Assembly: GCA_016180085.1 (NCBI GenBank)
Contig: JACPBX010000003.1
Location: 74,655-138,654, forward strand
DNA length: 64,000 bases
Origin: Candidatus Woesearchaeota archaeon
Lineage (GTDB): Archaea; Nanobdellota; Nanobdellia; Woesearchaeales; UBA10216
Direction of reading: 5' to 3'
Positions 7,266 to 27,915 of this stretch are shown piece by piece. Below the pieces are notes generated by a model that saw only the letters and a list, made by a program, of their open reading frames with translations, was not told the origin of the DNA and searched no databases. A program made the position numbers and the translations under genes. How positions within the stretch are numbered: position 1 is the first letter of the stretch; every line of letters starts with the position of its first letter.

Positions 7266-7277
7266 CTTTTTGATTTT

Positions 7278-8990: not shown

Positions 8991-9069
8991 GCCGGCAGAG
9001 CATTCCTGACCGCAACCTTTATAAAATTCCGCAAGGTAGCTTTTTTTATGAATTGCGTGGCTGGTTTTT

Positions 9070-11415: not shown

Positions 11416-11563
11416 GTTAATCCCCTCTTTCCTTTCCTCTCAGGTTTCTGCGGCAATAAAGGGCAATATATAGAGGACTTTGAATAACCGCTCATATTTA
11501 ATTTTTGTTTAAAGTCCTCTCAGCGTATCGCTGAGGGATGTCAGCTCTAAGCTGACATTCTCT

Positions 11564-11605
11564 TAGACAACTTTGCTATACGACGGGGTTAATCAAAGTT
11601 GTCTA
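11564..11605. promoter_or_regulatory. Perfect 12-bp inverted repeat TAGACAACTTTG-N18-CAAAGTTGTCTA followed by TATAAAT; candidate operator / divergent-promoter element
   Basis: Read directly from sequence (arms at 11564-11575 and 11594-11605); lies in the 260-bp non-coding gap between divergent HAD and aminotransferase genes; two shorter hairpins (ctcagcg-tat-cgctgag at about 11517-11533 and tcagc-tctaa-gctga at about 11541-11555) lie just upstream. Confidence 0.4.
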
Positions 11606-11678
11606 TAAATCTTATTTTGCATGCTTGCAACCTGTTTCACTCCCTAACTATCGAAAACTTTAAGTAAGGCTGCTCTGG

Positions 11679-12800
11679 ATGCTTTTGCTATTCACTATGG
11701 CAAACATGAAAAAACTCTTTATTCCCGGGCCGGTTCAGGTGGACAGGCGGGTTCTCGAGGAAATGGCCCGCCCTATGATGCATCACCGTTCTGCTGAATG
11801 CGTTGCTCTAATCAGGGAAATAAACGGGCTGCTGTCAGAGCTCCTTGGGACAAAGGACAGCATATTTCTCCTCACAAGCTCTGCTACCGGCGCCATGGAG
11901 GCCTGCATAAGGAGCTGCGTCATAAGCAGGGTGCTGTGCATTGCCAACGGCGAGTTCGGAAGGCGATGGCATTCTGTGGCAGTTTCAAACGGTAAGGATG
12001 CCAGGCTGCTGGACTTTGGCGATGGCGCGCTGGTTGACTACGGCGCTGTGGCTGATGAGCTGAGGAAAGGCGATTTTGATGCTGTGACCTTCATAATTAA
12101 TGAGACGTCAACAGGCATGGAGAACGACTCAAAGGCGCTGAAAGCAGCTGTCCAGGCTGCTTCAGGGGATGCCGCAAAGGACATTATAATATTGGCAGAT
12201 GGAGTTTCTGCTGTCTTTGGGACAAAGGTTGACATGGCTGACTATGATGCGCTGCTTTTTGCAACGCAGAAATCCCTTGCGCTGCCTCCGGGCATGTCCA
12301 TAATAATTGCGAACAGCCGGGCAATTGGCCGTGCCAAGCTGGTCAAGGGCAGGGGCTACTACTTCGACTTCCTTCTCCTCAAGAAGAGGAGCGATGAGAA
12401 CATGACAACAACAACGCCTGCCCTGCCGATTCTTTATGCCCTGAGGTACAGGCTGCAGGAGATTGGGAAGCAGGGGATTGGCAGCTACATTAACAGGCAT
12501 AAAGCCATGGCCGAGCTTGTCCGCAGCAGAATCAGGGGCATGGGCTTCAGGCTTTTCGTGCCAAGCAGCTACTCAAATACTGTTACTGTCATTTCAAATA
12601 ACCTTGGCGTTGATACTGAAGGGCTGATAAGGCTTCTTTCTGAAAAGGGCTATGTCATTGAAAACGGCTACGGCCCATTGAAGAACAAGACTTTCAGGAT
12701 AAGCCACATGGGCGATATAACCCCTGCTGATACAGGGGAGCTGCTTGCCGAGATGGAGAAAATCGTGAAATCGCAGCTGTCAGCCAGCAGCTTGCCGTGA
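11679..12800 (+). CDS. Class V aminotransferase (AGXT/SGAT/archaeal-SerC family)
   Basis: 373 aa; N-terminal LFIPGPVQV...MMHHRSAEC signature of the class V/AGXT family; true start probably MANMKK/MKK (11700/11706); 4-nt overlap with the downstream kinase gene. Confidence 0.8.
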   Translation: MLLLFTMANMKKLFIPGPVQVDRRVLEEMARPMMHHRSAECVALIREINGLLSELLGTKDSIFLLTSSATGAMEACIRSCVISRVLCIANGEFGRRWHSVAVSNGKDARLLDFGDGALVDYGAVADELRKGDFDAVTFIINETSTGMENDSKALKAAVQAASGDAAKDIIILADGVSAVFGTKVDMADYDALLFATQKSLALPPGMSIIIANSRAIGRAKLVKGRGYYFDFLLLKKRSDENMTTTTPALPILYALRYRLQEIGKQGIGSYINRHKAMAELVRSRIRGMGFRLFVPSSYSNTVTVISNNLGVDTEGLIRLLSEKGYVIENGYGPLKNKTFRISHMGDITPADTGELLAEMEKIVKSQLSASSLP

Positions 12801-13888
12801 ACGGGAATGATGGAAAAGTGGGAAAGGCCAGGGTTTTTGCACCGGCAACAACAGCCAATGTCGGCCCGGGCTTTGACATCTTTGGCGTTGCACTTGATGG
12901 CGTAGGCGATATTGTCGAAGCTGACTTGTCTGATTCTTTCAGTGGTGTAAGGCTGGCGGAGGTTGCTGTCGGTTCAGACAGCGAAAGCTTAAAGGACCTT
13001 CCAATGGATGAGGCAAATCTCGTTTTTCCCGTTGCAAAGGCAGTGTATGATGCGGCTTGCAAAGCTGGCCGCAAAGACACCGGCGTTGAGGTAAGGCTGA
13101 TTAAGAGGATGGGAATAGGCACAGGGCTCGGCAGCAGCGGCTCAAGCTCTGTTGCTGCTGCCGTTGCAGTTAATGAGGCTTTGGGCGGGGTTTTTGCCCG
13201 TGACAGCCCCGAGATGCTTGCTGCTGTCCTGGAAGGCGAATTTGTTGCCTGCGGCTCCAGGCACGCTGATAATGTTTTCCCTGGCCTTCTTGGCGGCTTT
13301 GTCTTCATCGAGGACCCAGCCTCATTCAGGTTCAGGAAGTTTGACGTTGGCAGAGACGTGTTTTTTGTAGTTGTTACGCCTGAAATTGTCGTCAGCACAA
13401 AGGAAGCAAGGGATGCATTAAGGGCTTCGCCATACAACATCGGTGAGCTTGTAAGCCTTTCCAGCTCAGTGGTTAGGCAATACCTTGACTCGGGCAGCCG
13501 CAGCTCAGGCAGTATTCCTGCTTCAGTTGTTGGCACTGGCTCGGCTGATGTTGTTTCAGCTTACCTGGAGGGAACGGTTGAGGTTCTAACAGGCCTGATT
13601 GGCAATGATGCTGAGCTGCTTGGCAGGGGCACGCTGAAAGATGGCATTGTTACCCCAATAAGGGCAGGGCTTATTCCGGGCTATTACGATGTCAAGAAGG
13701 CCGCCCTTGAGGCTGGCGCAAAGGGGTTTTCAATTTCTGGCTCAGGCCCTTCTGTTTTTGCAGTGGCTTATGAGGAAGATGCTGAGGCTGTAAAGAAAGC
13801 CATGATTGGCAGGTTTGAGGGCCTGGGCAAAAGGGCGAGCGGCATCATCTCAGCCGTAAACAACAAAGGCGCCTGCCCGGTTGAGTGA
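12797..13888 (+). CDS. GHMP-family kinase, homoserine-kinase (ThrB)-like
   Basis: 363 aa; N-terminal APATTANVGPGFDIFGVAL (ThrB-type motif 1) and GIGTGLGSSGSSSVAAAVA (GHMP ATP-binding motif 2). Confidence 0.75.
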   Translation: MNGNDGKVGKARVFAPATTANVGPGFDIFGVALDGVGDIVEADLSDSFSGVRLAEVAVGSDSESLKDLPMDEANLVFPVAKAVYDAACKAGRKDTGVEVRLIKRMGIGTGLGSSGSSSVAAAVAVNEALGGVFARDSPEMLAAVLEGEFVACGSRHADNVFPGLLGGFVFIEDPASFRFRKFDVGRDVFFVVVTPEIVVSTKEARDALRASPYNIGELVSLSSSVVRQYLDSGSRSSGSIPASVVGTGSADVVSAYLEGTVEVLTGLIGNDAELLGRGTLKDGIVTPIRAGLIPGYYDVKKAALEAGAKGFSISGSGPSVFAVAYEEDAEAVKKAMIGRFEGLGKRASGIISAVNNKGACPVE

Positions 13889-13936
13889 TTTTATTTTGGA
13901 GAAATTATTTAAAGGAGCGTTTCAGGCAGCCTTTCC

Positions 13937-15184
13937 TTGTTGGAAGTGGAATGCATGATTGATGTTGGCAGGTTCAGGAACATACAATATGGGAAAAGGA
14001 CAAGGTGCATGGCTTGCGGGGCAGCTGTTGGCAAGCCGCTGATAAGCCTGCCTGATTTTCCTTTGAGCGAGATTTACACGGACCGCCCTGTTAAGGAGAA
14101 AGCAGGATTTGTTGACCAGGAGTTCTGCCTTTGCAAAAGCTGCGGCCATGGCCAGCTGCTTAACATAATCCCGCCGGAGCTCCTTTACTTTGGCAGCAGC
14201 TACTTTTTCAGGACTTCGCAGAGCAGGACTGCTGTGCCAGCTGTTGACTTCTTTCTCGACTTTGTCGAGGGCGTTCTTAAAAGCAGGGCTTACGATACCA
14301 TTGCTGACATTGGCTGCAACGACTTGTACATGCTGAAGAAGCTTGACGCTAAGGCAAAAAGGCTTTTGGGGATTGACCCTGTCCTCGCAGGAAGGGAGAA
14401 GGAGCTTTCTGAGGGGAAGACCGTTGTCATTGGGGACTTGTTTGAGAATGCTGTTGCCAATCACAACGTATCTTTCGATAAGGACCTTGTGCTTAGCAGC
14501 CACACCCTGGAGCACGTGAAGGACCCTAAGTGGCTTGTCAAGACTGTGCTTGACAGTTCAACAGATAACACGCTGTTCGGTTTCCAGTTCCCGGGTTTCG
14601 AGAGCCTGGTGAGGGATGCAAGGTTTGATCAGGTGTTCCACCAGCACTATAACTATTTCACTTTGAAGTCAGTCGTCCGCATGCTTACGGACCTGGGCGC
14701 AGAGCTTGTTGCTTACAAGGTGAACCCTTACCACTGGGGTGCGCTGATGATAGTGTTCAGGAAAAACCCCTCAGGCTCAACAGCCTGGCACAAGAGGTTT
14801 GAGCATGATGCTGTGCAGCTCACTGATGAGGCAGTCCTCTCGCAGTACCGGGTTTTTCAGGATGCCATGAAGCTGGCAGGTGAGCGCCTTTCAGCGTGGA
14901 AGGGCAGCACGGTTTACGGCTACGGCGCAGCAAACATGCTTCCCGTCCTGAGCTACCACATGAAGAACGACCTTTCCTGCCTTCAGGCTGTATTGGATGA
15001 TGATGAGCGCAAGCAGGGCATGCACTACATCAACCTTCCTGTTGCCATAAAGTCCCCTTCTGTTGTTAAGGACTTCAAGGATGTTGTGCTGTTCCTTACA
15101 GCCATTGACAATTCCAGGATACTTGTGCCAAAGCTTATCTCGCTCGCACCAAAGAAAATTATCCTTCCCCTTAACATTGTGTAG
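13937..15184 (+). CDS. NDP-hexose C-methyltransferase (TylCIII family; Zn-ribbon + Methyltransf_13/14)
   Basis: 415 aa; N-terminal CMAC...CKSCGHGQL Zn-ribbon, SAM motif DIGCNDLYML, C-terminal C-methyltransferase domain. Confidence 0.75.
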   Translation: MLEVECMIDVGRFRNIQYGKRTRCMACGAAVGKPLISLPDFPLSEIYTDRPVKEKAGFVDQEFCLCKSCGHGQLLNIIPPELLYFGSSYFFRTSQSRTAVPAVDFFLDFVEGVLKSRAYDTIADIGCNDLYMLKKLDAKAKRLLGIDPVLAGREKELSEGKTVVIGDLFENAVANHNVSFDKDLVLSSHTLEHVKDPKWLVKTVLDSSTDNTLFGFQFPGFESLVRDARFDQVFHQHYNYFTLKSVVRMLTDLGAELVAYKVNPYHWGALMIVFRKNPSGSTAWHKRFEHDAVQLTDEAVLSQYRVFQDAMKLAGERLSAWKGSTVYGYGAANMLPVLSYHMKNDLSCLQAVLDDDERKQGMHYINLPVAIKSPSVVKDFKDVVLFLTAIDNSRILVPKLISLAPKKIILPLNIV

Positions 15185-15322
15185 CCATTATGCAGCGCTA
15201 TGTGATTCTCCTCCATAAAATTTCGGGCTATGACGGTAAGAGGGGGTAAAATTTATATACTCTCACGGATTCGGGACAGCTTCCGGAAAACAGCTGCGTG
15301 TTTGCAGCAGTCTTGAAGGGGG

Positions 15323-16117
15323 TTGTTTTTTATGGATTTTGGTCTGACTGGCAAGAAAGCCTTGGTTACTGCAGCGAGCCGCGGCATTGGCGCGTCCATT
15401 GCAATAAACCTGGCAAAGGAAGGCGCGCTGGTTGCTATTACAGCGAGGAGCGAGCCTGACCTTAAGGAAGTCATTGCAAAGATGGGCGGCGAAGGTAAAG
15501 GCCATTACATGGTTGTTGCTGACCTGACTGCCGAGGACGGCCCGAAGAAAGTTTTTGACAAGGTTCTGAAGGATTTTGGCTCCCCTGACATTCTTGTCAA
15601 CAACCTTGGCGATACGCTTGAGCTCCGAGACCCTTTTATCCCAATCAGTGACTGGAGAAAAATCATAAGGCTCAACCTTGAGGTCGCCATTGAGCTGAAC
15701 AATCTTGTTATTCCGCATATGGAGCAGAGGAAATGGGGCAGGATAGTTAATGTTTTGTCAACAGCATCTTACGAGAACAACGGGCCTGTCCCTTACTGCA
15801 CTGCCAAGGCTGCCTTCTCGGCTTATACGAGAAGCATGGCCAGGGTTTTGGCAAAGACAGGCATTGTTATGTCCGGCATTGTGCCTGGCGCTATTTTCAC
15901 AGAGGGCGGTGCCTGGGACATTGCCATGAAGACAAGGCCTGAGCACATCCGCAAATACCTGGAGGAAAGGCTCCCCCTGGGCAGGTTTGGCGAGCCTGAT
16001 GACATAGGTACCATGGCTGTTGTGCTGTGCTCAGAGCAGGCAAAGTTCTGCCAGGGCTCCATTTTCCCTGTTGATGGCGGCCAGAGCAGGCACTATTTTC
16101 GGGCTGCCACTGATTAA
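15323..16117 (+). CDS. Short-chain dehydrogenase/reductase (FabG-like ketoreductase)
   Basis: 264 aa; ALVTAASRGIGASIA (TGxxxGIG), NNLG, YCTAKAA (YxxxK). Confidence 0.85.
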   Translation: MFFMDFGLTGKKALVTAASRGIGASIAINLAKEGALVAITARSEPDLKEVIAKMGGEGKGHYMVVADLTAEDGPKKVFDKVLKDFGSPDILVNNLGDTLELRDPFIPISDWRKIIRLNLEVAIELNNLVIPHMEQRKWGRIVNVLSTASYENNGPVPYCTAKAAFSAYTRSMARVLAKTGIVMSGIVPGAIFTEGGAWDIAMKTRPEHIRKYLEERLPLGRFGEPDDIGTMAVVLCSEQAKFCQGSIFPVDGGQSRHYFRAATD

Positions 16118-16118
16118 A

Positions 16119-17918
16119 ATGAAGCTGTCTGACTATGTTGTGGAGTTTTTGGTTGAGCAGGGCATAAGGCACGTTTTTCTAGTTTCAGGAGGGGCGGTTG
16201 CGCACCTTGTTGATTCAGCAGCAAGAAACCCCAGAATGACTTACGTGTGCCCTGAGCATGAGCAGAACGCAGGCTCTGCTGCTGATGCCTATGCGAGGAT
16301 AACGGGGAAGATGGGTGCCGTGTTCACGACGAGCGGGCCTGGCGCCACCAACCTTGTGACGAGCGTTTGCAACTCATATTTTGACTCAATCCCTGTTATT
16401 TTCATCACAGGCCAGGTTGCGACATTCCGCATAAGGCCCAGCGAGAGGCTTCGCCAGAAGGGCTTTCAGGAAACCGATGTTATTTCCATATTTAAGTCAA
16501 TCACCAAATACTCGATACAGCTCAGGAAAGCAGAGGACATCAAGTTCGTCCTTCAGGAAGCTGTCCATGCAGCCACGTCAGGGAGGATGGGTCCTGTCCT
16601 TGTTGATATTCCTGATGATTTGCAAAGGGTCGAGATTGACCCTGAAAAGCTTCGGGATTTTAAGCCTTTGGCTGCCCAGGCAGGTGCAGTAAACCCGGCA
16701 AATGACCTGTCAGCTGTTAAGGATGTCTTTGCAGCCATAAGGTCTGCGAAAAGGCCTGTGCTTATCCTCGGCGCGGGCATCAGGCTTTCAGGCACAGTTC
16801 CTGAAGCCCTGAAGTTTGCCGAGCATTTCCGCATTCCGTTCCTTTTGACGTGGGGCGCTATGGACATGGTTGAGCACGGCTATGAGCTTAACATGGGCGG
16901 TGTTGGCGTTTGCGGCCCAAGAGGAGGTAATTTTGCAGCCCAGACGTCAGACCTTGTTGTTGCGCTTGGCACAAGGCTTTCCCAGATGATTACAGGCGGC
17001 AAGCAAAACCTTTTCGCTCCCTATGCGAAAAAAATCATGGTTGACGTTGATGCTGAGGAGCTTAACAAGTTCTCGCCAAGCGATGTTGTCCTTGACGTGA
17101 AAATCAGCTGTGGCCTCAGGGATTTTTTTGCAGAATGCGAAAGGCTTTACAGCGGCACCGGCCCTGCCGAAAAGGGCAGGCTGAAGGAGTGGAGGCAGCA
17201 AATCAATGAGTGGAGAATGAAATACCCAATCTGTCCCGGGTCAAACTACGGCAGGAAGGAAAGGGTTGATGCATACGTTTTTATCAGGGAGCTGTCAAAG
17301 GCAGCCAAGGAAGGTGATGTCATTTTCACCGATGCAGGCGGCAACCTGAGCCAGACCATGCAGGCCTTCGAAGTGAAAAAAGGCCAGCGCCTCATCTCAG
17401 CCTGGAACCACTCGCCCATGGGCTATGCGCTTCCTGCAGCCATTGGCGCTGCGTTTGCAATCGGCCAAGGCAGCGGCAAGGACATCCTGTGCATCATCGG
17501 CGATGGCGGCATTATGATGTGCCTTGAGGAGCTTGCGGTTATTGCCAAGCACAACCTTCCAATAAAAATTTTCGTTTTTAACAACCATGGCCATGCAATC
17601 CAGAAGCAGACCATCGATACCTGGCTTAACTCGCATTACGTGGCTGTTGACGAGTCTTCCGGCCTTGCTTTCGCTGATTTTGACAAAATCGGCCCGGCCT
17701 TCGGGCTTCCGGCTGTTGCCATAAGAAACCACGAAGAGCTTAAGGCAAAGCTTGGCAAGGTCCTTGGCGCCAAGGGCCCTGTGCTGTGCAATGTTGAGAT
17801 TGCTGTAGACCAGAGGATTGTTCCGATGCTCAGGTTTGGCGCAGGCATTGAGGACCTGGACCCAAAACTGCCTAAGGAAGAGGTTGAGGCAATCATGGCT
17901 GTTGGCAGGAAAAGGTAA
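16119..17918 (+). CDS. Thiamine-pyrophosphate-dependent enzyme of the acetolactate-synthase/benzoylformate-decarboxylase family (YerE-like candidate)
   Basis: Start moved to MKLSDYVVEFLVEQGIRHVF (ATG 16119, 1 nt after the SDR stop); N-terminal Pyr domain, central domain, C-terminal PP domain with GDGG...N TPP-binding motif (IIGDGGIMMCLEEL...FNN). Confidence 0.8.
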   Translation: MKLSDYVVEFLVEQGIRHVFLVSGGAVAHLVDSAARNPRMTYVCPEHEQNAGSAADAYARITGKMGAVFTTSGPGATNLVTSVCNSYFDSIPVIFITGQVATFRIRPSERLRQKGFQETDVISIFKSITKYSIQLRKAEDIKFVLQEAVHAATSGRMGPVLVDIPDDLQRVEIDPEKLRDFKPLAAQAGAVNPANDLSAVKDVFAAIRSAKRPVLILGAGIRLSGTVPEALKFAEHFRIPFLLTWGAMDMVEHGYELNMGGVGVCGPRGGNFAAQTSDLVVALGTRLSQMITGGKQNLFAPYAKKIMVDVDAEELNKFSPSDVVLDVKISCGLRDFFAECERLYSGTGPAEKGRLKEWRQQINEWRMKYPICPGSNYGRKERVDAYVFIRELSKAAKEGDVIFTDAGGNLSQTMQAFEVKKGQRLISAWNHSPMGYALPAAIGAAFAIGQGSGKDILCIIGDGGIMMCLEELAVIAKHNLPIKIFVFNNHGHAIQKQTIDTWLNSHYVAVDESSGLAFADFDKIGPAFGLPAVAIRNHEELKAKLGKVLGAKGPVLCNVEIAVDQRIVPMLRFGAGIEDLDPKLPKEEVEAIMAVGRKR

Positions 17919-17923
17919 GAAAA

Positions 17924-18967
17924 ATGGGAAATGAAGACGTTATTTCAGCAGTGAAATCAAAGTATCCGCTTTCCAGGCTCAAGGAGATGCTTGAGGGCCT
18001 TGGAAGTGTTAAGGCGATGGTGGTGGGCGATACCATAATTGACGAGTATCACTTCACAATCCCGAAGGGCAGGGCCACGAAGGACCCTATTTTGTCCGTT
18101 GACTACATCAACCACGAGGTTTATGCCGGCGGCATTTTGGCAATTGCCAACCATGTCAGCAACTTTGTTGGCAGCGTTACGTGCGTAACGCTTCTGGGTA
18201 ATAAGGACGACAGGAAGGGCTTTGTTGAAGGCTCGCTTAACAGGAACGTTACCCTGAAATCCTTTATGAAGGAGAACTCACCTACAACTGTTAAAAAGCG
18301 CTATCTGAACTATCTTCGCAACGAAAAGCTGTTTAAGGTTGAGTACATTAACGACAGGCCCATATCTGAAAAGCTTGAGGCTGAACTGATAGCTTTCCTT
18401 AATGTTGAGCTGCCCAGGCACGACCTTGTCCTGGTCGGTGACTTTGGCCACGGCATGATAACCCCGGCAATTATTGAGGTATTGGAGAAAAAGGCGAAAT
18501 ACCTTTGTGTCAATGCGCAGAGCAACAGCTCAAACCTGGGCTTCAACTTTGTGACAAGGTATCATTTGCCCGCTTTTGTGACAATGGACGTCCAGGAGCT
18601 CCAGTACGCTGTTGGCGACAGGTTCAGCCCCATGCCTGTCCTTATTCAGAAGCTGCACGAAAAGGCAGGCTTTAACAAGTTCCTCGTGACTATGGGCAAG
18701 GATGGCGCTGGCTTCTTCAGCAGCGGCAGGCTTTCTTTTTTCCCTGCCTTTGTGACAAGGCCTCAGGACACTGTCGGGGCTGGCGACGCTGTCTTTTCCA
18801 TCGCATCCCTTTTCTCCTACAGCAGCCATGATGAGCTGATTCCCTTCATTGCCAACTGCGTGGGAGGGATTGCTGTTTCGTACATGGGCAACAAGGAGTT
18901 CATAACCAGGAACGCGCTTGTCAGCTTTGTTGAAGAAGTGTATAATGGCAATACGAAGGTGCGGTGA
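17924..18967 (+). CDS. hldE: PfkB-family sugar kinase, HldE/RfaE domain-I-like (heptose 7-phosphate 1-kinase candidate)
   Basis: 347 aa; N-terminal AMVVGDTIIDEY, C-terminal DTVGAGDAV (PfkB motifs); co-occurs with gmhA and an adenylyltransferase-GmhB fusion. Confidence 0.7.
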   Translation: MGNEDVISAVKSKYPLSRLKEMLEGLGSVKAMVVGDTIIDEYHFTIPKGRATKDPILSVDYINHEVYAGGILAIANHVSNFVGSVTCVTLLGNKDDRKGFVEGSLNRNVTLKSFMKENSPTTVKKRYLNYLRNEKLFKVEYINDRPISEKLEAELIAFLNVELPRHDLVLVGDFGHGMITPAIIEVLEKKAKYLCVNAQSNSSNLGFNFVTRYHLPAFVTMDVQELQYAVGDRFSPMPVLIQKLHEKAGFNKFLVTMGKDGAGFFSSGRLSFFPAFVTRPQDTVGAGDAVFSIASLFSYSSHDELIPFIANCVGGIAVSYMGNKEFITRNALVSFVEEVYNGNTKVR

Positions 18968-18991
18968 TTATAGCGCTTATCGCTTACTTCG

Positions 18992-20140
18992 TCATCTTTC
19001 CATTACCTTGTCAAACTCGTTCTTCAGCTCTTCATAGCTTTTGTCTGTGACGTCGATGAATGCAGCATTGGCGTTCCGTGCCATGCCGGCGTCGTCTTCG
19101 CTGTTGCCGATAACGGCTGCCTTGTCAAACTCCTTTATGTTCTTGCCCAGCTGCTGTAAGGCCTGCAGCAGCATCTCGGGGCTCGGCTTCCTTTTTGTTT
19201 TCTTTTTTACAAAATCCGGGTTGAAATTAGCTTCTTTCTGTAAGGCGGCATAGTCCGCATCAGCGTCTGGGCAGTATTGCCAGTTGTTTATTATAACACC
19301 TTTTCTTCTCAATAATTCATGAATGTGCTTGTTTACAGCTTCAACTTTTTCCGCATCAAAATAGCCCCTGGCAACTCCCTGCTGATTTGAAATAACGACC
19401 CTGACAGTGTCGTACTTTGTCTGTATGTAGATGAGCAAGTCAACAACTTCTTTCTTTAGCTTTATCTGATCTCTCCAGTTAGAGTCTTTGCCCAGAAAAT
19501 TAACCTTCTCCACCAATGTGCCGTCCCTGTCAATCACCAGCAGCACTTTTTCGCTCTTTGCATTTTCCTGTATGTGCCTGATGATGGCCGTTGTTGACAT
19601 TTTCTGGTCTGTGGTATACTTTATTTCGCCGCCAACAGCCTTTATCGCTTCTCTCTCGGAAGTGATTCCTGGTGTTGTCTTTTCAGCAAAATCGGGCCCT
19701 TTTATGTAATAGGCAGGTTTTAGCATTTTAATCAGGTCGGTTGCTTTCTCAAAGTCGCTGACAATCACGTAGTCAACATACCGGATGCTTGCAACTGAAT
19801 AAGCCCTTAATGCCTCTGAGAAGATTGGCCTGCCGCTGCCTTTCCTGGCTGCCACAAACCTGTCTGCGGTTACTGCAACAAAAAGGCAGTCGCAAAGCTT
19901 TTTTGCTGATTCCAGGTGCTTTATGTGACCTGGATGAAGAAGGTCAAAGCCGCCGTTGCAAAGCCCGGCTTTCCTTCCCTGCTTCCTCAGCTCCTCGCTT
20001 TTTTCCACAGCCTCGGCAAGGCTTATGACCTTGTCGGACCTGTAGTTTTTGGGTGAGTCTTCCTTTATCATCTGCAATGCAGCCCTATTTGCCGCCTCCG
20101 CCTCCTGCAAGCTTTTTAACCTTCCTGATAATTGCTTCAA
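18992..20140 (-). CDS. Bifunctional cytidylyl/adenylyltransferase (HldE domain-II-like) fused to D,D-heptose-1,7-bisphosphate phosphatase (GmhB-like HAD)
   Basis: N-terminal CNGGFDLLHPGHIKHLESAKKL...LFVAV (HIGH-type nucleotidyltransferase, like HldE-II/TagD); C-terminal LLVIDRDGTL...ISNQQGVARGYF...YCP...RKPSPEML...GNSEDDAGMARNA matches GmhB; start may be the internal ATG at 20071, which would remove the 56-nt overlap with the next gene. Confidence 0.7.
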   Translation of the reverse strand: MKQLSGRLKSLQEAEAANRAALQMIKEDSPKNYRSDKVISLAEAVEKSEELRKQGRKAGLCNGGFDLLHPGHIKHLESAKKLCDCLFVAVTADRFVAARKGSGRPIFSEALRAYSVASIRYVDYVIVSDFEKATDLIKMLKPAYYIKGPDFAEKTTPGITSEREAIKAVGGEIKYTTDQKMSTTAIIRHIQENAKSEKVLLVIDRDGTLVEKVNFLGKDSNWRDQIKLKKEVVDLLIYIQTKYDTVRVVISNQQGVARGYFDAEKVEAVNKHIHELLRRKGVIINNWQYCPDADADYAALQKEANFNPDFVKKKTKRKPSPEMLLQALQQLGKNIKEFDKAAVIGNSEDDAGMARNANAAFIDVTDKSYEELKNEFDKVMER

Positions 20141-20822
20141 GCCAGACTTCGGCGAATAGTTTGGGTATGAAGGCCGTTACCCCTAATATGTTTTTCGCCC
20201 TGAACATCTTTGAGCTGGGCTTCGGCGCTATGTTGACTGGTATTTCCTCATAGCTGTGGCCCCGGCGGAGCAGCCTTACAAGTATTTCCGCCTGGAAGGC
20301 GTAGCTGTTGGTTGTTATCCTTGCCTGCCTTGCGAGGCTTGTTTCATAGCACACCATCCCGAGATAATATTTCAGCCTCAGCCCGAAGAGCACGTTGAGT
20401 GTTGTTGTGAACATTGTTGATATCAGCCTTCTGTCTACTGGCCTTGTTTCCCTGTTGGCAACATATGCTACGATGATGTCTTTTTCGCCAACGTGCTGCA
20501 GGAATGCCTTCACTGATTCGGGTGGTATGCCGCCGCTGCCAGGCAGAATCATGATGTACTTTTTGGCTGCAGCTGTAAGCCCTGCGCGGTAGCTGTAGCC
20601 GACGTTCATGTTTTTCCTGTTGTGGATGACCCTTATCCTGTGGTTTTCCCTTGCAAGCCGGTCTGCCATCTCTGGCGTTTTGTCAGTGCTTCCGTCATCA
20701 AGGATTATTAGTTCGTAGTCGTTGAACACGCTGCCGACAGCTTCAATGATGTTCCTGACCGCTGCTGAAAGGTTTCTTTCCTCGTTATATGCAGAGATTA
20801 GGATGGTTATTGACCTTTCCAT
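20085..20822 (-). CDS. GT2 glycosyltransferase (Dpm1-like)
   Basis: Start taken at MERSITILISAYNEE; ILDDGSTDKT motif. Confidence 0.75.
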   Translation of the reverse strand: MERSITILISAYNEERNLSAAVRNIIEAVGSVFNDYELIILDDGSTDKTPEMADRLARENHRIRVIHNRKNMNVGYSYRAGLTAAAKKYIMILPGSGGIPPESVKAFLQHVGEKDIIVAYVANRETRPVDRRLISTMFTTTLNVLFGLRLKYYLGMVCYETSLARQARITTNSYAFQAEILVRLLRRGHSYEEIPVNIAPKPSSKMFRAKNILGVTAFIPKLFAEVWLEAIIRKVKKLAGGGGGK

Positions 20823-20862
20823 GCTGTCATGCTCCCACATAGCTATGTTATTAATTAAGCTG

Positions 20863-21993
20863 TTAGAATGGCCCCGTGAAGCTCGGGTCTGGCACGTCGG
20901 GCTTGGCAGGCAGCTTCTGCCTCTCTGACTCGGCTATGGCTTTCGCCTGCCCTTCCGGCACATTTGCCAGCTCGCACACCTCTTTTATTATGTCGATGTG
21001 CGATGGATAATAATGCTTGCTCAACGCATGGCTCGTTGGTGTCGGGATGTCCGGCAGCGTCACCCTTTTTGGCGCTGCTTTCAGCCTGCCAAACAAGGAT
21101 TTGTTTTCGCTGACCCTCGCTATGATATCGCCTGCAAGCCCGCCTGAGTAGTAGCCTGAGTCGATGACAAGGAGCTTGCCTGTTTTTTCAACGCTCTGCC
21201 TGATTGTTTCGAAGTCCAGAGGCTTTATCGTCCTTAAGTCTATGATTTCAGGGCTTACTTTCCCGGCCAGTGCATTTGCCGCTTTCATAGCCTGAACAGT
21301 CATGTAAGAGCTTGTTACGATTGTCACGTCTTTTCCTTCCCTGAGCACCTTTGCCTTTCCAATGGGCACTGTGTATGGCTTTTCAGGCACATACCCTGTT
21401 ATGTTGTGCAGCCACCTGTGCTCTATGAATATGACTGGGTTGTTGTCCTTTACGCTTGCGATGAGAAGCCCTTTTGCATCATAGGCGTTGCTTGGCATCA
21501 CGACTTTCAGCCCAGGCGCATGTGCCAGAATGGCTTGCAGGTTTTGCGAATGCTGGGCTCCCTGCCCCCAGCCCTGCCCTATTATTGCCCTTATGACCAT
21601 TGGCACGCTCAGCCTGCCTCCAAACATGTAGTGCCATTTCGCTGCATTGTTTACAATCTGGTCCATGGCAAGGAGGATGAAGTCGAGCCTTTGGTGCACC
21701 ATAATCGGCCTTAGGCCTTTCAGTGCTGCCCCTATGCACACCCCTGTGAGGCCGTTTTCCGATACCGGCATGTCAAGCACCCTGTTTTTGCCGTGCTTTT
21801 CCCGGAGCCCTGTTGTTGTGCCAAAGATGTGCTTCGGGTCAGGCACGCCTTCGCCTATTACGAACACAGAGCTGTCCATCTGCATGCACTGGTCTGTTGC
21901 TTCCAGCACTGCCTCTGCGTAGGTTATCTTTCTCTTCCTTTCATCTTTAGCAGCTTCAGCCGTTGTTTCCATTTTTTCCATTTCCATCAGCAT
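20863..21993 (-). CDS. Pyruvate/2-oxoacid dehydrogenase E1 component beta-subunit-like (transketolase Pyr + C-terminal domains)
   Basis: 376 aa; IGEGV...G, AEN(GL)TGVCIGAAL, HSQN...PGLKVV characteristic of E1-beta; no E2/E3 genes nearby. Confidence 0.8.
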   Translation of the reverse strand: MLMEMEKMETTAEAAKDERKRKITYAEAVLEATDQCMQMDSSVFVIGEGVPDPKHIFGTTTGLREKHGKNRVLDMPVSENGLTGVCIGAALKGLRPIMVHQRLDFILLAMDQIVNNAAKWHYMFGGRLSVPMVIRAIIGQGWGQGAQHSQNLQAILAHAPGLKVVMPSNAYDAKGLLIASVKDNNPVIFIEHRWLHNITGYVPEKPYTVPIGKAKVLREGKDVTIVTSSYMTVQAMKAANALAGKVSPEIIDLRTIKPLDFETIRQSVEKTGKLLVIDSGYYSGGLAGDIIARVSENKSLFGRLKAAPKRVTLPDIPTPTSHALSKHYYPSHIDIIKEVCELANVPEGQAKAIAESERQKLPAKPDVPDPSFTGPF

Positions 21994-22994
21994 TAGTCAG
22001 CGTAAAGGTTGTCTGCCAGGGTTTCCTTTGCAGGGAAAGGGCTCTCCTTTGCGAACCTGAATGCCTCGTTCACTTCTTTCTTTACAGTTTCGTCAATTGC
22101 CTCAAGCTCCTTTTCCGTTGAAACCCTTTTGCCGAGCAGGGTTTCCCTGAGTTTTTTGATTGGGTCTTTTTCCTTCCATTCTGCTATTTCCTGTGCTGTC
22201 CTGTAGCCGAGCTTTGAGTCATCGTTTGGGCCGACGTGCTCAAGCCACCTGTATGTTGCAAACTCAAGGAACGCCGGTCCGGCTCCTGACCGCGCATGCT
22301 CAACCGCTTTTTTCGCTGCTGTGTAGACTGCAATGGCGTCGTTGCCATCCGCTTTGAAAACTGCTATGCCCTGTGCTTTTGCGAGCTGCGTTATTTCGCG
22401 CTCAGGCTGCCTTTCCCTTATGTGCGTCTGGCTTGCGTAGAGGTTGTTTTCGCAGGCAAACAGCACAGGCAGCCTGTGCAGTGCTGCGAAGTTCGTTGCC
22501 TCGTGGAACGCCCCCCCCTCAACAGCCGAATCGCCAAAGAAAGCAACCGAAATTGCGTTCTTCTTTTGCATCCTCGCTGCGAGCGCAGCTCCTACAGCAA
22601 CTGGTATCGTCCCTCCAACCAATGGAGTTGAGGCAACAAAATTTGCTGCCAGGTCAATCAGGTGCATTGAGCCTCCCCTGCCTTTTGCGCAGCCGGTTTC
22701 CTTTCCGTATAGTTCTGCAATCATGGCTTTCAGGCTGCCTCCCTTTGCAAGGTAATGGCCATGAGCCCTGTGGTTGGAGAATGCGCTGTCTTCACTCGTC
22801 AGGTTTTGGCACACGCCCGCAGGCACTGCCTCCTGGCCTATGCAGAGGTGCACCGGGCATCTCATTTCCTGCTCTGGGTAAAGCTCGGCTATCCTTTCCT
22901 CTGTTCTCCTTATCAGGAGCATCGAGCTGTAAAGTCCAAGAAGTATGTTATTGTCAGGCAGATTTTCCATTTTTTCATCATCAGCGTTTTCCAT
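21993..22994 (-). CDS. Pyruvate/2-oxoacid dehydrogenase E1 component alpha-subunit-like (TPP-binding)
   Basis: 333 aa; GQEAV, HRAHGH, FFGDSAVEGGAFHEA...CENNLYA (GDG-x25-NN TPP motif); the beta-subunit gene start (21993) overlaps its first base by 1 nt. Confidence 0.8.
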   Translation of the reverse strand: MENADDEKMENLPDNNILLGLYSSMLLIRRTEERIAELYPEQEMRCPVHLCIGQEAVPAGVCQNLTSEDSAFSNHRAHGHYLAKGGSLKAMIAELYGKETGCAKGRGGSMHLIDLAANFVASTPLVGGTIPVAVGAALAARMQKKNAISVAFFGDSAVEGGAFHEATNFAALHRLPVLFACENNLYASQTHIRERQPEREITQLAKAQGIAVFKADGNDAIAVYTAAKKAVEHARSGAGPAFLEFATYRWLEHVGPNDDSKLGYRTAQEIAEWKEKDPIKKLRETLLGKRVSTEKELEAIDETVKKEVNEAFRFAKESPFPAKETLADNLYAD

Positions 22995-23102
22995 CGTTTT
23001 TCGGGGTTTCGTGGCAGCCGTTGCCTTTAAAAACTTTTTTGAGGTTTGGGGTTTTTGGAATATGGAATAAATTTAAATAATGCATGAGCCGCGCTGCAGC
23101 CA

Positions 23103-25406
23103 ATGGGGTTTGTTCCGGTTTTCGTGTTTTTGGCATGCACCTGGGGCCTTGGGTTCTCTGTCCTGAGGCTCGCCAGGGCTGGGGAGCAGGATAGCTTTCT
23201 TGAGCGCAACGTCATGAGGATAGGCATAGGCCTGTCATCCTTTGTCGTGCTTGGAGTGATATTTAACGCTCTTGGAATCCCCCTGGACTACAGGGTTTTC
23301 CTTGTTTTTTCCGGGTTGATGCCCGCCTACGAGCTTCTGGTAAGGAAGGGCTTCAGGAAAACAAAGGCAACGCCATCAGCAAACTCGCAGGAAAAAACAG
23401 GCGGAAAGGCAGGCATGAAGCTGAAGCTATCTGACATCAACGCTGTTGTTGTCCTGGTGATATTTGCCGCAACACTCATCATGTATCTGTCAGGAGCGTT
23501 CAGGTACCCATATCTTGAGGATGACGACCCGTGGGGGCACGCGTCTGCTGTAAAGTACGTGTCTGTGGAGAAGACAGCCAATGACCCGGCTACGCTTGAT
23601 TTCCATTACATGGACCCGTATCCTCCGGGCTATGACATGGTATTGGGCATTCTGAATCAGGTTTCGTCATCAACAGCATGGACACTGAAGTTCTTCAATG
23701 CGCTTTTCATCTCCCTTAGCATCATGTTCTTTTATTTCTTCACAAAGGAGTTCTTTGGCAACAGGAACAAGGCGCTCTTCGCGGCCTTTGTGCTTGCGTC
23801 AGTGCCTGCCTACCTGAGTCATTTCATATGGGCGCCTGCGCTTGCAATGGCTGTTTTTTCCCAGGCAATGTATTCGTTGGAGATGTTAAAGCATGACAGG
23901 AAGTGGTGGGCTGTTGCAGGCGTCTGCTTTGCAGCAATATTGCTCTCGCATCCAACCCATGCAGTCAAGCTGACAGGGCTTGTGCTGATATATGTTGGCG
24001 TGAAGGCTGTTGCCAACCTTACGTTCAGCACAAAATCTCTGCCTTTGCTGCTGCGTCAGCTGCAGCCGAGCCTCGGCAATTTTGCCGCAGTTGCTTTTGG
24101 TGTTTTCCTGTCCTTGTTCTGGTGGGCAGCCAAGTGGAAAGGCTTTTTCGGCGTGGCAAGGGGAAGCTTCAGGGCAGGGAGCGAGGCTGTAACAGGGGCT
24201 GTTGGAAGCTCAGGCAGCATGCTTGCAAAGCTCCTTTCGCTGCCGGCAAGAATCTTCAACGCAGAAAGCGGCACAGCAACAAGGGTCTATCTGCTGAGGG
24301 ATTTCGCGGTTGTCCAGGGCAACAACATGATAAACAATCCCGTGGGGCTGGGCTTTTTTGCCTTCGTGCTGATGGTTGCAGGGATTGTTTCTGCTGCTTC
24401 AAAAATTGTAATGCATTTGCCAAAGAGGAAAGCCGCAATAGCTGCGGCAGCTGCGGCGGTTATAGTCCTGGCTGTGATTATAGCTTCAAACACTTATGAA
24501 TACCAGACAAACCTGTACGAGACCGGGTCTAGGTTTGCACAGTTTCTGCAGTCGCCGCCAAGCTATGCAAGCGTGTTTCTCATGTCGCTGATGTTAAGCT
24601 CATTGGCGGTCGCTTTTGTTCTTTCAATTGCTGCCATAATTATTTTGAGGCGGAAATCCCACAGCCAAGGCGACCAAGGCGACCAGGAGAATCAGCAAAA
24701 CTGGCAAAGCAGCCTTGTTATAGCAGCGATACTGCTGGGTTGGCTGCTTTTTACATTTTTGGGCGTGAACAGCCGGACGTTCAACCTGCCTGTGGGGCTT
24801 TTTGCATTCAGGTTCTGGATGATTTTTGCCATACCTGCTGCAATGCTGGCTGCCGAGGGGCTTTTTTCCATGCTGGGGCTGGTTAAGGCGCTGAAGCTTG
24901 ATGCCGCAACAGCAACAACAGTGAAACTGGCAATAATAGCTGTTGTTGTCGCGGGAGTGCTTTTCACTTCTGCGAAGCAGAAGTATGACACAAACACTAG
25001 CTGCTGGCCATCCGGTGCGTTCTGGAGCGGGGAGTTTGTGCTTGAGCCAGGCTCTAACTGCCCGGTCCAGGCAGAGCTGCTGTCCTACCAGTGGCTGAAG
25101 ACCCTGCCTGCAGGGACAAAGGTGTTTACTTTTTCCAACCCTGACCAGGTGATAGGGTTTGACAAGTACTCGTGCGGGTGGTGTGCGCCGGAATATGGCA
25201 TGCGGCAGAGGTTCTACAATGTCACAGCATCAGAACTAAACAGCTTCATGGCCGAGAACAGTTACGAATACCTTATTCTGGGAGGAATTGAAGCCAGGAA
25301 CTACGGTCTGAACAGGACAGTCCAGCTCATAAACGAGTTTGCTGAGTCAAGGCTCTTTACTGTTGCCTACAACGGCCAGTCAGCGGTGGTGTTCAGGACA
25401 GCATGA
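23103..25406 (+). CDS. Large polytopic membrane protein, GT-C-fold glycosyltransferase candidate
   Basis: 767 aa, more than 12 predicted TM segments; periplasmic-loop acidic motif YLEDDDPWGH; large C-terminal soluble domain; 4-nt overlap with the next GT-C gene. Confidence 0.55.
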   Translation: MGFVPVFVFLACTWGLGFSVLRLARAGEQDSFLERNVMRIGIGLSSFVVLGVIFNALGIPLDYRVFLVFSGLMPAYELLVRKGFRKTKATPSANSQEKTGGKAGMKLKLSDINAVVVLVIFAATLIMYLSGAFRYPYLEDDDPWGHASAVKYVSVEKTANDPATLDFHYMDPYPPGYDMVLGILNQVSSSTAWTLKFFNALFISLSIMFFYFFTKEFFGNRNKALFAAFVLASVPAYLSHFIWAPALAMAVFSQAMYSLEMLKHDRKWWAVAGVCFAAILLSHPTHAVKLTGLVLIYVGVKAVANLTFSTKSLPLLLRQLQPSLGNFAAVAFGVFLSLFWWAAKWKGFFGVARGSFRAGSEAVTGAVGSSGSMLAKLLSLPARIFNAESGTATRVYLLRDFAVVQGNNMINNPVGLGFFAFVLMVAGIVSAASKIVMHLPKRKAAIAAAAAAVIVLAVIIASNTYEYQTNLYETGSRFAQFLQSPPSYASVFLMSLMLSSLAVAFVLSIAAIIILRRKSHSQGDQGDQENQQNWQSSLVIAAILLGWLLFTFLGVNSRTFNLPVGLFAFRFWMIFAIPAAMLAAEGLFSMLGLVKALKLDAATATTVKLAIIAVVVAGVLFTSAKQKYDTNTSCWPSGAFWSGEFVLEPGSNCPVQAELLSYQWLKTLPAGTKVFTFSNPDQVIGFDKYSCGWCAPEYGMRQRFYNVTASELNSFMAENSYEYLILGGIEARNYGLNRTVQLINEFAESRLFTVAYNGQSAVVFRTA

Positions 25407-26950: not shown

Positions 26951-26952
26951 GC

Positions 26953-27909: not shown

Positions 27910-27915
27910 TTTGAG

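Follow-up and report, generated by a model that had tools for sequence, protein, structure and literature searches.

We analyzed a 64-kb stretch of DNA (hereafter, the window) from the genome of a Candidatus Woesearchaeota, a DPANN archaeon. The archaeal host is backed by 2 database proteins, P0001 and P0121, which are named as Woesearchaeota and are 100% identical to proteins of the window, and by the neighborhood of a related locus, L002, in which the heptose cluster adjoins a block of genes for ribosomal proteins and RNA polymerase subunits, including an RpoN-type subunit (PF01194). The window as a whole is a glycan island; neither tRNAs nor Rfam elements were found in its 64 kb. In the list of open reading frames (ORFs) of the window, a gene for a PfkB kinase (347 aa) converges on an ORF that encodes an N-terminal nucleotidyltransferase (NT) domain followed by a HAD phosphatase domain, and a gmhA-like isomerase gene is located 16 kb from both (Table 1). 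The 2 ORFs had been recognized in a sequence-only reading of this DNA and are confirmed here, the fusion occupying a single uninterrupted frame. That reading took the fusion in its maximal form (18992..20140, minus strand; 382 aa counted from a TTG), an ORF that does exist, but the TTG at 20140 sits within the upstream glycosyltransferase (GT2) gene. The true start is the ATG at 20071, 13 nt past the GT2 stop codon, yielding a protein of 359 aa that is identical to NCBI model P0001 and whose Met1 is common to 103 of the 120 listed homologues in the alignment. The gmhA gene is likewise real and lies where it had been placed, with its strand corrected to minus.

Table 1. Positions of the genes and domains discussed in the text, numbered from the first nucleotide of the window
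Feature	Position	Strand	Remarks
TylC3-type sugar C-methyltransferase	13937..15184	+	Upstream of kinase
SDR	15323..16117	+	Upstream of kinase
Acetolactate-synthase-like ThDP enzyme	about 16119..17918	+	Upstream of kinase
Stand-alone PfkB kinase, HldA/HldE-domain-I-like	17924..18967	+	Predicted step 2; HMM, PDB search, GAGD motif
Fusion protein, HAD-IIIA phosphatase domain, GmhB/HisB-N group	18992..19561	-	Residues 171-359 and stop codon; predicted heptose-1,7-bisphosphate 7-phosphatase, step 3
Fusion protein, NT domain, HldC/HldE-domain-II-like	19562..20071	-	Residues 1-170; predicted step 4; HMM, PDB, fold, motifs
GT2 glycosyltransferase	20085..20840	-	Glycos_transf_2; directly upstream of fusion gene, co-transcribed
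ThDP pair, E1-beta and E1-alpha	20863..21993 and 21993..22994	-	Opens the operon; GT2 and fusion genes close it
GT-C membrane glycosyltransferase	31780..33693	+	PMT_2
Two small EamA-type membrane proteins	33695..34048 and 34020..34412	+	After GT-C gene
Two NAD-dependent sugar epimerase/dehydratases	34420..36487	-	Downstream of gmhA, translationally coupled
GmhA-like SIS isomerase	36487..37092	-	Predicted sedoheptulose-7-phosphate isomerase, step 1; HMM, PDB search

The NT domain is most similar to HldC and to domain II of HldE. In hidden Markov model (HMM) comparisons, it matched TIGR02199 (rfaE_dom_II) with 120.1 bits (E = 6.5e-35; equivalog cut-off, 181.5 bits) and the TagD model with only 45.7 bits. 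The HldE-II model thus leads by 74 bits, which answers in the negative the question, set in advance, of whether the domain is closer to TagD. Burkholderia pseudomallei HldC (5x9q/5xf2) headed the matches of this domain both by PDB sequence (52.6 bits) and by fold, and the highest whole-sequence PDB score, 57 bits over 2 stretches, was obtained with human ethanolamine-phosphate cytidylyltransferase (3elb). The HIGH-type motif reads GGFDLLHPGH (H46, H49) and the xSTT motif KMSTT (S159, T161); across the 120 homologues, H46 and H52 are invariant, and H49, S159, T160, and T161 are conserved in at least 95%. According to PMC11573728 and PMC11461863, the promiscuous STTR5-type heptose nucleotidyltransferases of Tang et al. 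(Science 2024) carry Arg at position 5 of (F/L)xxGxSTT. The window protein has no Arg there (T154-D-Q-K-M158-S-T-T), and position 158 of the family is occupied by Leu in 84, Met in 18, and Phe in 15 of the 120 homologues. We predict that the domain is a heptose-1-phosphate nucleotidyltransferase, which would form NDP-heptose from beta-heptose 1-phosphate and an NTP.

The kinase matched TIGR02198 (rfaE_dom_I) with 107.7 bits (E = 5.9e-31), about 80 bits ahead of all other PfkB models (28 bits or less) and below the equivalog cut-off of 345 bits. The PDB sequence search agrees, with B. cenocepacia HldA (4e84) as the best match (E = 2.9e-16) and ribokinases at E values of about 8e-3 to 1e-2, so that the protein is not closer to ribokinases or fructokinases, the second comparison set in advance. 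The catalytic GAGD motif is present (VGAGDAV). The best NCBIfam models for the SIS protein were those of GmhA, namely TIGR00441 (111 bits, E = 4.7e-32; cut-off, 209) and PRK13936 (113 bits, also under its cut-off), and its 11 best PDB matches were all phosphoheptose isomerases (E values from 6e-25 to 1e-19), followed by DiaA. The catalytic and metal-binding residues of E. coli GmhA are H61, E65, Q172, and H180; in the alignment with 1tk9, the SIS protein keeps both His, with Asp replacing E65 and Glu replacing Q172.

The C-terminal domain of the fusion passed the cut-off of TIGR01656, the GmhB/HisB-N phosphatase domain model (94.4 bits, E = 6.1e-27; cut-off, 84.15), and matched 2o2x, 3l8h, and 2gmw in the PDB sequence search and E. 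coli GmhB (2gmw/3l8e), 3l8h, and 2o2x in the fold search. HAD motifs I to III are kept (D181-R-D183-G-T, S228-N229-Q230, and R294-K295-P296) and are invariant or nearly so among the 120 homologues, in all of which D181, D183, Q230, R294, K295, and D327 are present. The earlier description of this domain as clearly GmhB-type is nevertheless too strong. GmhB-specific models were matched below their cut-offs (PRK08942, 60.5 versus 178 bits; TIGR00213, 47 versus 149.6 bits). The zinc-binding cap CxH...CxC, a hallmark of GmhB and HisB-N (PMC9798254), is absent, C267, D269, K291, and K293 being aligned to C92, H94, C107, and C109 of the E. coli enzyme, and the cap loop is about 9 residues longer than that of GmhB and contains conserved aromatic residues. 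Motif IV reads N323-S-E-D-D327, with Asn in place of the first Asp of DxxxD, and S324 is aligned with K137 of E. coli GmhB. Therefore, with N323 and S324 in these positions, full phosphatase competence, or action on the same substrate, is not assured.

The same pathway might accordingly operate with an impaired or retargeted HAD domain: loss of the 7-phosphate would occur at a different point, with NDP-heptose 7-phosphate or a lipid-linked heptose phosphate as conceivable substrates, or would fall to another phosphatase, or the domain would act on a modified heptose. Apart from the zinc-less cap, S324, and the replacement of the presumed Mg-binding Asp by N323, this is suggested by a relative, L007, in which a HAD domain of the same GNSEDD type is fused C-terminally to a YfhO-like membrane glycosyltransferase, which puts phosphatases of this kind at the membrane, and by a separate HAD-IA hydrolase encoded in the window (10762..11415). 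The HAD-IA protein, however, represents a different subfamily and is not matched by the fusion-family HMM, and the remaining catalytic residues of the fusion, D327 included, are invariant. Furthermore, Asp (78 homologues) and Asn (42 homologues) interchange at position 323 within one close family, and no other alignment column co-varies with the change, which points to a tolerated variant, and divergent NT-HAD fusions elsewhere retain fully canonical GmhB motifs (CPH..CxCRKP in the cap and GDxxxD). We consider an impaired or retargeted domain unlikely and favor the assignment of the domain as the predicted 7-phosphatase.

Domain HMMs and fold both support the proposal that a GmhB-type phosphatase, not the kinase, is the fusion partner of the nucleotidyltransferase. 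The AlphaFold2 model of the fusion protein depicts one two-domain chain (pLDDT, 93.7; pTM, 0.73). In the Foldseek search, HldC 5xf2 ranked first (E = 7e-11 and target TM of 0.78 to 0.82 for its chains), followed by E. coli GmhB, B. bronchiseptica GmhB, and HisB-N; none of the matches was a solved chain spanning both domains. Adjacent genes can mimic a fusion in tblastn, as illustrated by L076 (Rhizomicrobium), a candidate bacterial fusion that was rejected since it consists of an ordinary HldE and a separate, overlapping gmhB. That the two-domain ORF of the window is likewise an assembly or gene-calling artefact joining adjacent hldC and gmhB genes is effectively refuted by the uninterrupted reading frame, the single confident chain of the model, the conservation of the linker between the domains in the homologue alignment, and the recurrence of the same NT-HAD architecture, about 355 aa in length, in at least 418 independent sequence clusters (90% identity) from NCBI, JGI, ENA, Logan, and Tara assemblies.

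Nearly all named clusters of the fusion belong to Woesearchaeota or Nanoarchaeota. The suggestion that the pathway was acquired horizontally is unsupported, given that the family is widespread and diverse in these archaea and that GC content around the locus is ordinary. A scan of genome contigs recovered mostly bacterial HldE and HldC, matched through the NT domain, and a full-length fusion in L005 only. Existing database labels for the family are generic (“HAD-IIIA family hydrolase” or “hypothetical protein”), and no description of an NT/phosphatase fusion was found in the open-access literature on Woesearchaeota, DPANN, HldC/GmhB, or a bifunctional archaeal enzyme.

The fusion gene usually adjoins SIS and PfkB genes. 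In L002, L003, L085, and the P0118 locus, it converges directly on both, and it lies 4 kb from a PfkB::SIS fusion in L001 and 4 kb from PfkB in L004; furthermore, 24 listed fusion homologues match a listed kinase homologue in the exact length of the longest contig. Orthologues of gmhA adjoin PfkB and fusion genes in L002, L003, L085, and L006. Among the relatives, neither a SIS nor a PfkB gene is present within 7 kb of the fusion gene in L086, and in L006, from Woesearchaeota, the NT is unfused and a phosphatase gene is absent from the 10.7-kb locus examined. The 4 domain types (SIS, PfkB, NT, and HAD) are repeatedly fused to one another, and only to one another: PfkB::SIS fusions account for 39 of the 120 listed kinase homologues, NT::PfkB fusions occur in 31 loci, P0320 has the architecture PfkB-NT-HAD, and P0330 has the architecture NT-HAD-SIS. 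These fusions tie all 4 domains into one pathway.

Comparison with characterized systems places the locus among beta-anomer routes. HldE (RfaE) of E. coli and other Gram-negatives relies on the same PfkB kinase and HxGH nucleotidyltransferase families and gives the best HMM scores with the kinase and the NT domain alike, although the scores fall well under its equivalog cut-offs. In HldE, the kinase (step 2) precedes the NT (step 4) within one protein, whereas the window encodes a lone kinase and an NT followed by a C-terminal phosphatase (steps 4 and 3). Setting aside the two-stretch match to ethanolamine-phosphate cytidylyltransferase, the closest solved relatives are the split pair of Burkholderia and Neisseria, HldA (4e84), which is monofunctional like the window kinase, and HldC (5x9q/5xf2), which, unlike the fusion, has a single domain. 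In addition, Burkholderia HldC carries the STTR5 Arg (FEHDRSTT; PMC11573728), whereas the fusion family shows TDQKMSTT, the corresponding residue being Leu or Met. The HAD domain shares with GmhB (2gmw/3l8e, 3l8h) and HisB-N the fold, DxDGT, (S/T)NQxG(I/V)ARG, RKP, and the second Asp of DxxxD, but lacks their zinc site CxH...CxC and is fused to an NT. Tang et al. (Science 2024; via PMC11573728 and PMC11461863) reported functional NDP-heptose enzymes from archaea and described 3 architectures of heptose nucleotidyltransferases (HENases), namely mono-domain NT, kinase/NT, and isomerase/kinase/NT. These share the pathway and the NT family with the window, but the list, as given there, includes neither the NT/phosphatase fusion nor PfkB::SIS, NT-HAD-SIS, or PfkB-NT-HAD. 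The alpha-type pathway follows the same four-step logic with different kinase and nucleotidyltransferase families; at the P0118 locus, a HAD::NTP_transferase fusion beside a GHMP kinase represents the same fusion of steps 3 and 4 in a pathway of this type. The possibility that a GHMP kinase of the window (12797..13888) is a heptose kinase of the HddA type was rejected, as it is a homoserine kinase that exceeds the cut-off for its family. The fusion, as originally proposed, is indeed a solution different from the bacterial kinase-NT type, but it is not peculiar to this genome, being shared by a large family in the databases. The locus consists of known parts rearranged into an uncharacterized architecture and is not a new kind of system.

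Several neighboring genes bear on the fate of the sugar. Matches of the GT2 protein to PgfS, dolichyl-phosphate hexose transferase, and ArnC are weak, and it is a candidate polyprenyl-phosphate heptosyltransferase; a GT2 gene is also found ahead of the fusion gene in L001, L002, L003, and L085, the L002 copy being 41% identical to that of the window. The GT-C gene together with the EamA pair resembles ArnT/ArnE/ArnF, and the pair is 44% to 50% identical to the pair beside the GT2 and fusion genes in L002. The best matches of the 2 epimerase/dehydratases are GalE, TviC, and RmlB, and both score under the cut-off of heptose_epim (130 and 77 bits versus 274.6); the product of the gene at 34420..35535 is 55% identical to the epimerase beside PfkB in L004. 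These enzymes possibly modify NDP-heptose. A clear HldD 6-epimerase was not found among the 3 SDR candidates, which are under the heptose_epim cut-off and closer to GalE or RmlB. A C-methyltransferase gene and an adh_short gene adjoin PfkB in L002, L003, and L085, and the E1 pair of the window is 55% to 56% identical to that of L004, which adjoins PfkB and the epimerase.

Such neighbors suggest unusual branched or C-methylated sugars and could be accommodated by a cluster that activates another sugar or polyol phosphate, through CDP-alcohol synthesis of the TagD/ECT type or through SIS and PfkB enzymes acting on a hexulose or octulose phosphate, in which case the likeness to heptose enzymes would reflect ancestry only. 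All 4 activities do score under the NCBIfam equivalog cut-offs (108 of 345, 120 of 181.5, 60 of 178, and 111 of 209 bits), and 3elb heads the whole-sequence PDB scores. Nevertheless, the best HMM match of every pathway protein is a heptose enzyme by a wide margin, including the leads over TagD and over other PfkB models; HldC ranks first among single-domain PDB matches as well as in the fold search, GmhA structures head the SIS search, and the 4 domain types are fused exclusively with one another. We regard activation of another substrate as very unlikely.

A four-step NDP-heptose pathway with a phosphatase-NT fusion is, in our assessment, the probable explanation of the locus, in line with the original proposal that the window covers all 4 steps; the predicted activities are of the HldE type (beta-anomer, PfkB kinase). 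The GmhA-like isomerase would produce heptose 7-phosphate, which the HldA-like kinase would phosphorylate at O1 to the beta-1,7-bisphosphate. The GmhB-like domain of the fusion would then take off the 7-phosphate, and the HldC-like domain would condense heptose 1-phosphate with an NTP, of which ATP is the likeliest because the fusion family lacks the STTR5 arginine. With phosphatase and nucleotidyltransferase in one polypeptide, the fusion joins the consecutive steps 3 and 4, between which the intermediate may be channelled from domain to domain. The NDP-heptose probably feeds the co-transcribed GT2, and the sugar may reach a surface glycan by way of a polyprenyl-phosphate intermediate, the ArnE/F-like EamA pair, and GT-C transferases, possibly after modification by the nearby C-methyltransferase, SDR, and ThDP enzymes. 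Use in surface glycans, also proposed earlier, is plausible in a glycan island in which the GT2 and fusion genes are co-transcribed.

More tentatively, Woesearchaeota and their DPANN relatives, along with some CPR bacteria, might have an NDP-beta-heptose lineage of their own, an extension that we regard as possible rather than probable. It would be marked by fusions of consecutive steps (PfkB::SIS, steps 2 and 1; NT::HAD, steps 4 and 3) and by a zinc-less, often Asn-variant phosphatase with changed specificity, and a new C-methylated or branched heptose would reach the cell surface with the help of a polyprenyl-phosphate carrier, a flippase resembling ArnE/F, and GT-C enzymes. Heptosylation of this ArnC/ArnT-like or Gtr-like kind would be hitherto undescribed for archaea, and the lineage could be an environmental source of ALPK1-active NDP-heptose.

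NDP-heptoses are building blocks of lipopolysaccharide and S-layer glycans and potent agonists of ALPK1 in innate immunity, and functional enzymes for their biosynthesis have recently been extended to archaea, viruses, and eukaryotes. Our analysis indicates that a large uncultured archaeal group has the pathway in an architecture outside the published three-type scheme and offers a concrete annotation for hundreds of proteins currently carrying the generic labels. The fusion is a compact enzyme, with 2 predicted activities, for enzymatic NDP-heptose synthesis, and the family provides a natural test of the need of GmhB for its zinc cap and the first aspartate of motif IV. Finally, the locus points to heptose-derived sugars on the cell surfaces of DPANN archaea.

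Both open reading frames (ORFs) of the sequence-only reading and its gmhA gene exist in the window, but the strand of gmhA and the start of the fusion gene, which joins an N-terminal nucleotidyltransferase (NT) domain to a C-terminal HAD phosphatase domain, needed correcting. The longest reading would begin at a TTG that falls within the upstream GT2 gene. Across this junction the minus strand reads ...GGCGGCAAATAG ggctgcattgcag ATGATAAAGGAA..., and because it places the GT2 stop codon at 20085-20087, we assign the start to the ATG at 20071, 13 nt downstream. The resulting 359-aa protein is identical to the NCBI model (P0001), and 103 of 120 homologues share its Met at residue 1.

Coordinates of the heptose-type genes and neighbouring features (window positions, except the two L007 rows, which are numbered on that locus)
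Feature	Position	Strand	Description
Glycan-biosynthesis island	1..64000		nearly the entire window
HAD-IA (HAD_2) hydrolase	10762..11415	-	217 aa; separate, 7.5 kb from the fusion gene; not GmhB type
Module block 1	13.9-23.0 kb		C-methyltransferase, SDR, ThDP enzyme, PfkB facing fusion, GT2, E1-beta, E1-alpha
Acetolactate-synthase-like ThDP enzyme	~16119..17918	+	inside the sugar cluster
Kinase ORF (stand-alone PfkB)	17924..18967	+	347 aa; convergent with fusion ORF
Fusion ORF, longest reading	18992..20140	-	382 aa if TTG is the start
E1-alpha/E1-beta pair (ThDP)	20863..22994	-	inside the sugar cluster
C-methyltransferase-epimerase fusion	27916..30219	-	767 aa; TylC3-type sugar C-methyltransferase (Methyltransf_13/23/14) fused to NAD-dependent epimerase/dehydratase
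GT-C and EamA pair	31780..34412	+	PMT_2 membrane glycosyltransferase, then a pair of small EamA-type genes that overlap (117 and 130 aa)
Module block 2	31.8-37.1 kb		GT-C, EamA, EamA facing epimerase, epimerase, GmhA
gmhA	36487..37092	-	strand corrected
GT4 glycosyltransferase	58095..60500	-	801 aa; split by ~460-aa intein with LAGLIDADG homing-endonuclease domain
YfhO-like glycosyltransferase with HAD (L007)	5892..8564		890 aa; membrane protein, C-terminal zinc-less GNSEDD-type HAD phosphatase
Reverse-order NT::PfkB fusion (L007)	10632..12179		515 aa; near the YfhO-HAD gene

Profile comparison against NCBIfam models gave a heptose enzyme as the top model for every protein of the set. The kinase matched TIGR02198 (rfaE_dom_I; 107.7 bits, E 5.9e-31; next unrelated model 1-phosphofructokinase, 28.2 bits), fusion residues 49-191 (382-aa numbering) matched TIGR02199 (rfaE_dom_II; 120.1 bits, E 6.5e-35; TagD, 45.7 bits) and GmhA matched PRK13936 and TIGR00441 (113 and 111 bits; DiaA, 74.6 bits). 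Fusion residues 201-361 (same numbering) scored 94.4 bits with the GmhB/HisB-N domain model TIGR01656, above its cut-off of 84.15, and 60.5 and 47.5 bits with the narrower GmhB (PRK08942) and HisB models. None of the four NCBIfam equivalog cut-offs was reached; the four proteins are divergent relatives rather than textbook orthologues. Among PDB sequences, the kinase matched HldA 4e84 (E 2.9e-16; ribokinases, ~1e-2), the first 11 matches of the SIS protein were GmhA structures, and the fusion C-domain matched 2o2x, 3l8h and 2gmw. The top single-domain match of the N-domain was B. pseudomallei HldC 5x9q, which human ethanolamine-phosphate cytidylyltransferase 3elb outscores over the whole fusion sequence when its two stretches are summed. 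An N-domain closer to TagD than to HldE-II, or a kinase closer to ribokinases or fructokinases, either of which would have undermined the heptose assignment, is thus contradicted by the scores.

An AlphaFold2 model of the fusion built from a 58-sequence alignment (pLDDT 93.7, pTM 0.73) retrieved HldC 5xf2 first in a Foldseek search of the PDB, followed by E. coli GmhB, B. bronchiseptica GmhB, M. loti 2o2x and HisB-N; no single solved chain in the PDB spanned both halves (query TM ≤0.39). Across 120 homologues (359-aa numbering), HxGH (H46, H49) and S159-T-T of the NT domain and D181-x-D183-G-T, N229-Q230, R294-K295-P296 and D327 of the HAD domain are invariant or nearly so. The first Asp of the HAD DxxxD is a Mg2+ ligand. 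When E. coli GmhB (100% identical to 2gmw/3l8e) is aligned to the fusion C-domain, this residue (D136) corresponds to Asn323, and K137 to Ser324; position 323 is Asp in 78 and Asn in 42 family members, with no co-varying columns in the family alignment. Given Asn323, it is likely but not certain that the HAD domain retains phosphatase competence. The zinc cap, a feature ascribed to GmhB and HisB-N alone (PMC9798254), is missing: E. coli C92, H94, C107 and C109 align with C267, D269, K291 and K293, and the cap loop, in which Y274, F283 and F287 are conserved, is longer by ~9 residues. The "clear GmhB-type" C-terminus of the sequence-only reading needs qualifying for the cap and for Asn323 and Ser324. 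Since divergent two-domain NT-HAD proteins (27-34% identity, including an "uncultured bacterium" sequence of an ACD aquifer) mostly carry the canonical cap CPH..CxCRKP, and all carry GDxxxD, the C-domain derives from GmhB, with the Woesearchaeota family as a subfamily in which the zinc site was lost. The zinc-less cap type also occurs on stand-alone HAD proteins. Two commentaries (PMC11573728, PMC11461863) present the STTR5 arginine as the hallmark of CTP/UTP-promiscuous heptose nucleotidyltransferases, although the motif is noted not to be strictly predictive; this residue is Met in the window fusion and either Leu or Met across the family, which weakly favours ATP.

A survey of database architectures showed the NT-HAD fusion to be recurrent (at least 418 clusters at 90% identity, ~355 aa), alongside related NT/HAD/PfkB/SIS combinations; the architecture is widespread and not confined to this genome. 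PF01467 is present in all 120 listed homologues (51% to 100% identity), many with HAD matches as well, and nearly all of the named ones among the matches listed are Candidatus Woesearchaeota or Nanoarchaeota. These proteins are long-standing public database entries with generic labels ("HAD-IIIA family hydrolase" at NCBI, [quoted passage not shown] at JGI); the window kinase is entered as [quoted passage not shown]. For 24 listed fusion homologues, the longest contig is exactly the same size as that of a listed kinase homologue, and a Tara contig carries the pair in convergent orientation with a 4-nt overlap. The suggested horizontal acquisition finds no support, because the family runs deep within DPANN and is diverse there, and GC is 0.48 locally versus ~0.50 for the window.

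HMMs built for each of the four domains and run over 85 sources found NT-HAD confined to the window and L001-L005, together with 31 NT-PfkB proteins, reversed in order relative to HldE (many bacterial phyla, Thermoplasmatota and Nanoarchaeota), 19 classical PfkB-NT and one PfkB-SIS; PfkB::SIS accounts for 39 of the 120 listed kinase homologues. A HMMER scan of 1.84 billion representatives, with Pfam on the resulting proteins, added PfkB-NT-HAD (P0320), NT-HAD-SIS (P0330), the divergent two-domain NT-HAD proteins and, outside the window, four ~610-aa NT-HAD-HATPase_c proteins with a histidine-kinase-like ATPase domain (P0293, P0329, P0344, P0372). At the P0118 locus (JGI 3300072015), where SIS and PfkB face the fusion gene, a few kb separate these genes from a 433-aa HAD::NTP_transferase (PF00483) and the GHMP kinase that comes after it, which look like a step 3+4 fusion counterpart in a GDP-alpha-heptose-type pathway. 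L007, on a contig binned as Gammaproteobacteria, encodes several YfhO-like membrane proteins and heptose-type fusions, a gene content nearer the fusion loci than a typical gammaproteobacterial heptose locus.

In L002, L003 and L085, one or two EamA genes, a ~626-aa membrane protein gene, GT2 and the fusion gene lie in this order and are faced by SIS, PfkB, C-methyltransferase, adh_short, DUF6016, C-methyltransferase and epimerase genes. Ribosomal-protein and RNA-polymerase-subunit genes, the RpoN-type subunit (PF01194) among them, form a block adjoining the L002 cluster, which confirms an archaeal host. In L001 the fusion gene follows GT2 and a PfkB::SIS gene lies close by, and in L004 (labelled Gottesmanbacteria) YfhO genes flank the fusion gene, with PfkB, epimerase, E1-alpha, E1-beta and DegT 4 kb away. 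L086 is the exception, lacking SIS and PfkB within 7 kb. The window carries the module as two separate blocks; its EamA pair is homologous to that beside the GT2-fusion genes in L002, and its E1 pair is 55-56% identical to that beside PfkB in L004.

The glycan-biosynthesis island encodes at least eight GT2/GT4 transferases, five GT-C-like or large membrane proteins (PMT_2, DUF6541, DUF2079), a Wzx-type flippase, two DegT aminotransferases, several SDR epimerases/dehydratases and several methyltransferases; tRNA and Rfam matches were absent from the 64-kb window. The C-methyltransferase-epimerase protein is a further unusual sugar-pathway fusion, and the GT4 intein interrupts the conserved EGF..P..EA motif (...WEGFNIPL|CLTPKS...GAIHN|CEANAVGKPAI).

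The interpretation as an NDP-heptose pathway with the nucleotidyltransferase fused to the phosphatase is largely supported. On the best-supported reading, the GmhA-like isomerase would catalyze step 1, the HldA-like kinase would form the beta-1,7-bisphosphate (step 2), the HAD domain would act as the 7-phosphatase (step 3) and the NT domain would yield NDP-beta-heptose (step 4); no clear HldD was found in the window. The GT2 co-transcribed with the fusion gene is weakly similar to polyprenyl-phosphate glycosyltransferases, the GT-C and EamA genes resemble ArnT with ArnE/ArnF, and GT2, the EamA pair and GT-C enzymes together resemble ArnC/ArnE-F/ArnT or GtrA/B/C systems; from conserved synteny, we infer that they use the NDP-heptose downstream. 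C-methyltransferases, SDRs, the ALS-like ThDP enzyme and the E1 pair suggest that the sugar is modified further, and the embedded ThDP enzymes, with no E2 or E3 partner for the E1 pair in the sugar cluster, hint at two-carbon branched-chain sugar chemistry.

A published survey of heptose nucleotidyltransferases, as relayed in two commentaries (PMC11573728, PMC11461863), lists three architectures, namely NT alone, kinase/NT and isomerase/kinase/NT, and the open-access literature searched describes neither an NT/phosphatase fusion nor heptose synthesis in DPANN archaea. Whereas bacterial HldE unites the non-consecutive steps 2 and 4, the window fusion unites consecutive steps (3 and 4), as does its sister PfkB::SIS (2 and 1), an arrangement that could allow direct passage of the intermediate between domains. 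The fusion is an uncharacterized, new architectural variant of the known NDP-heptose pathway.
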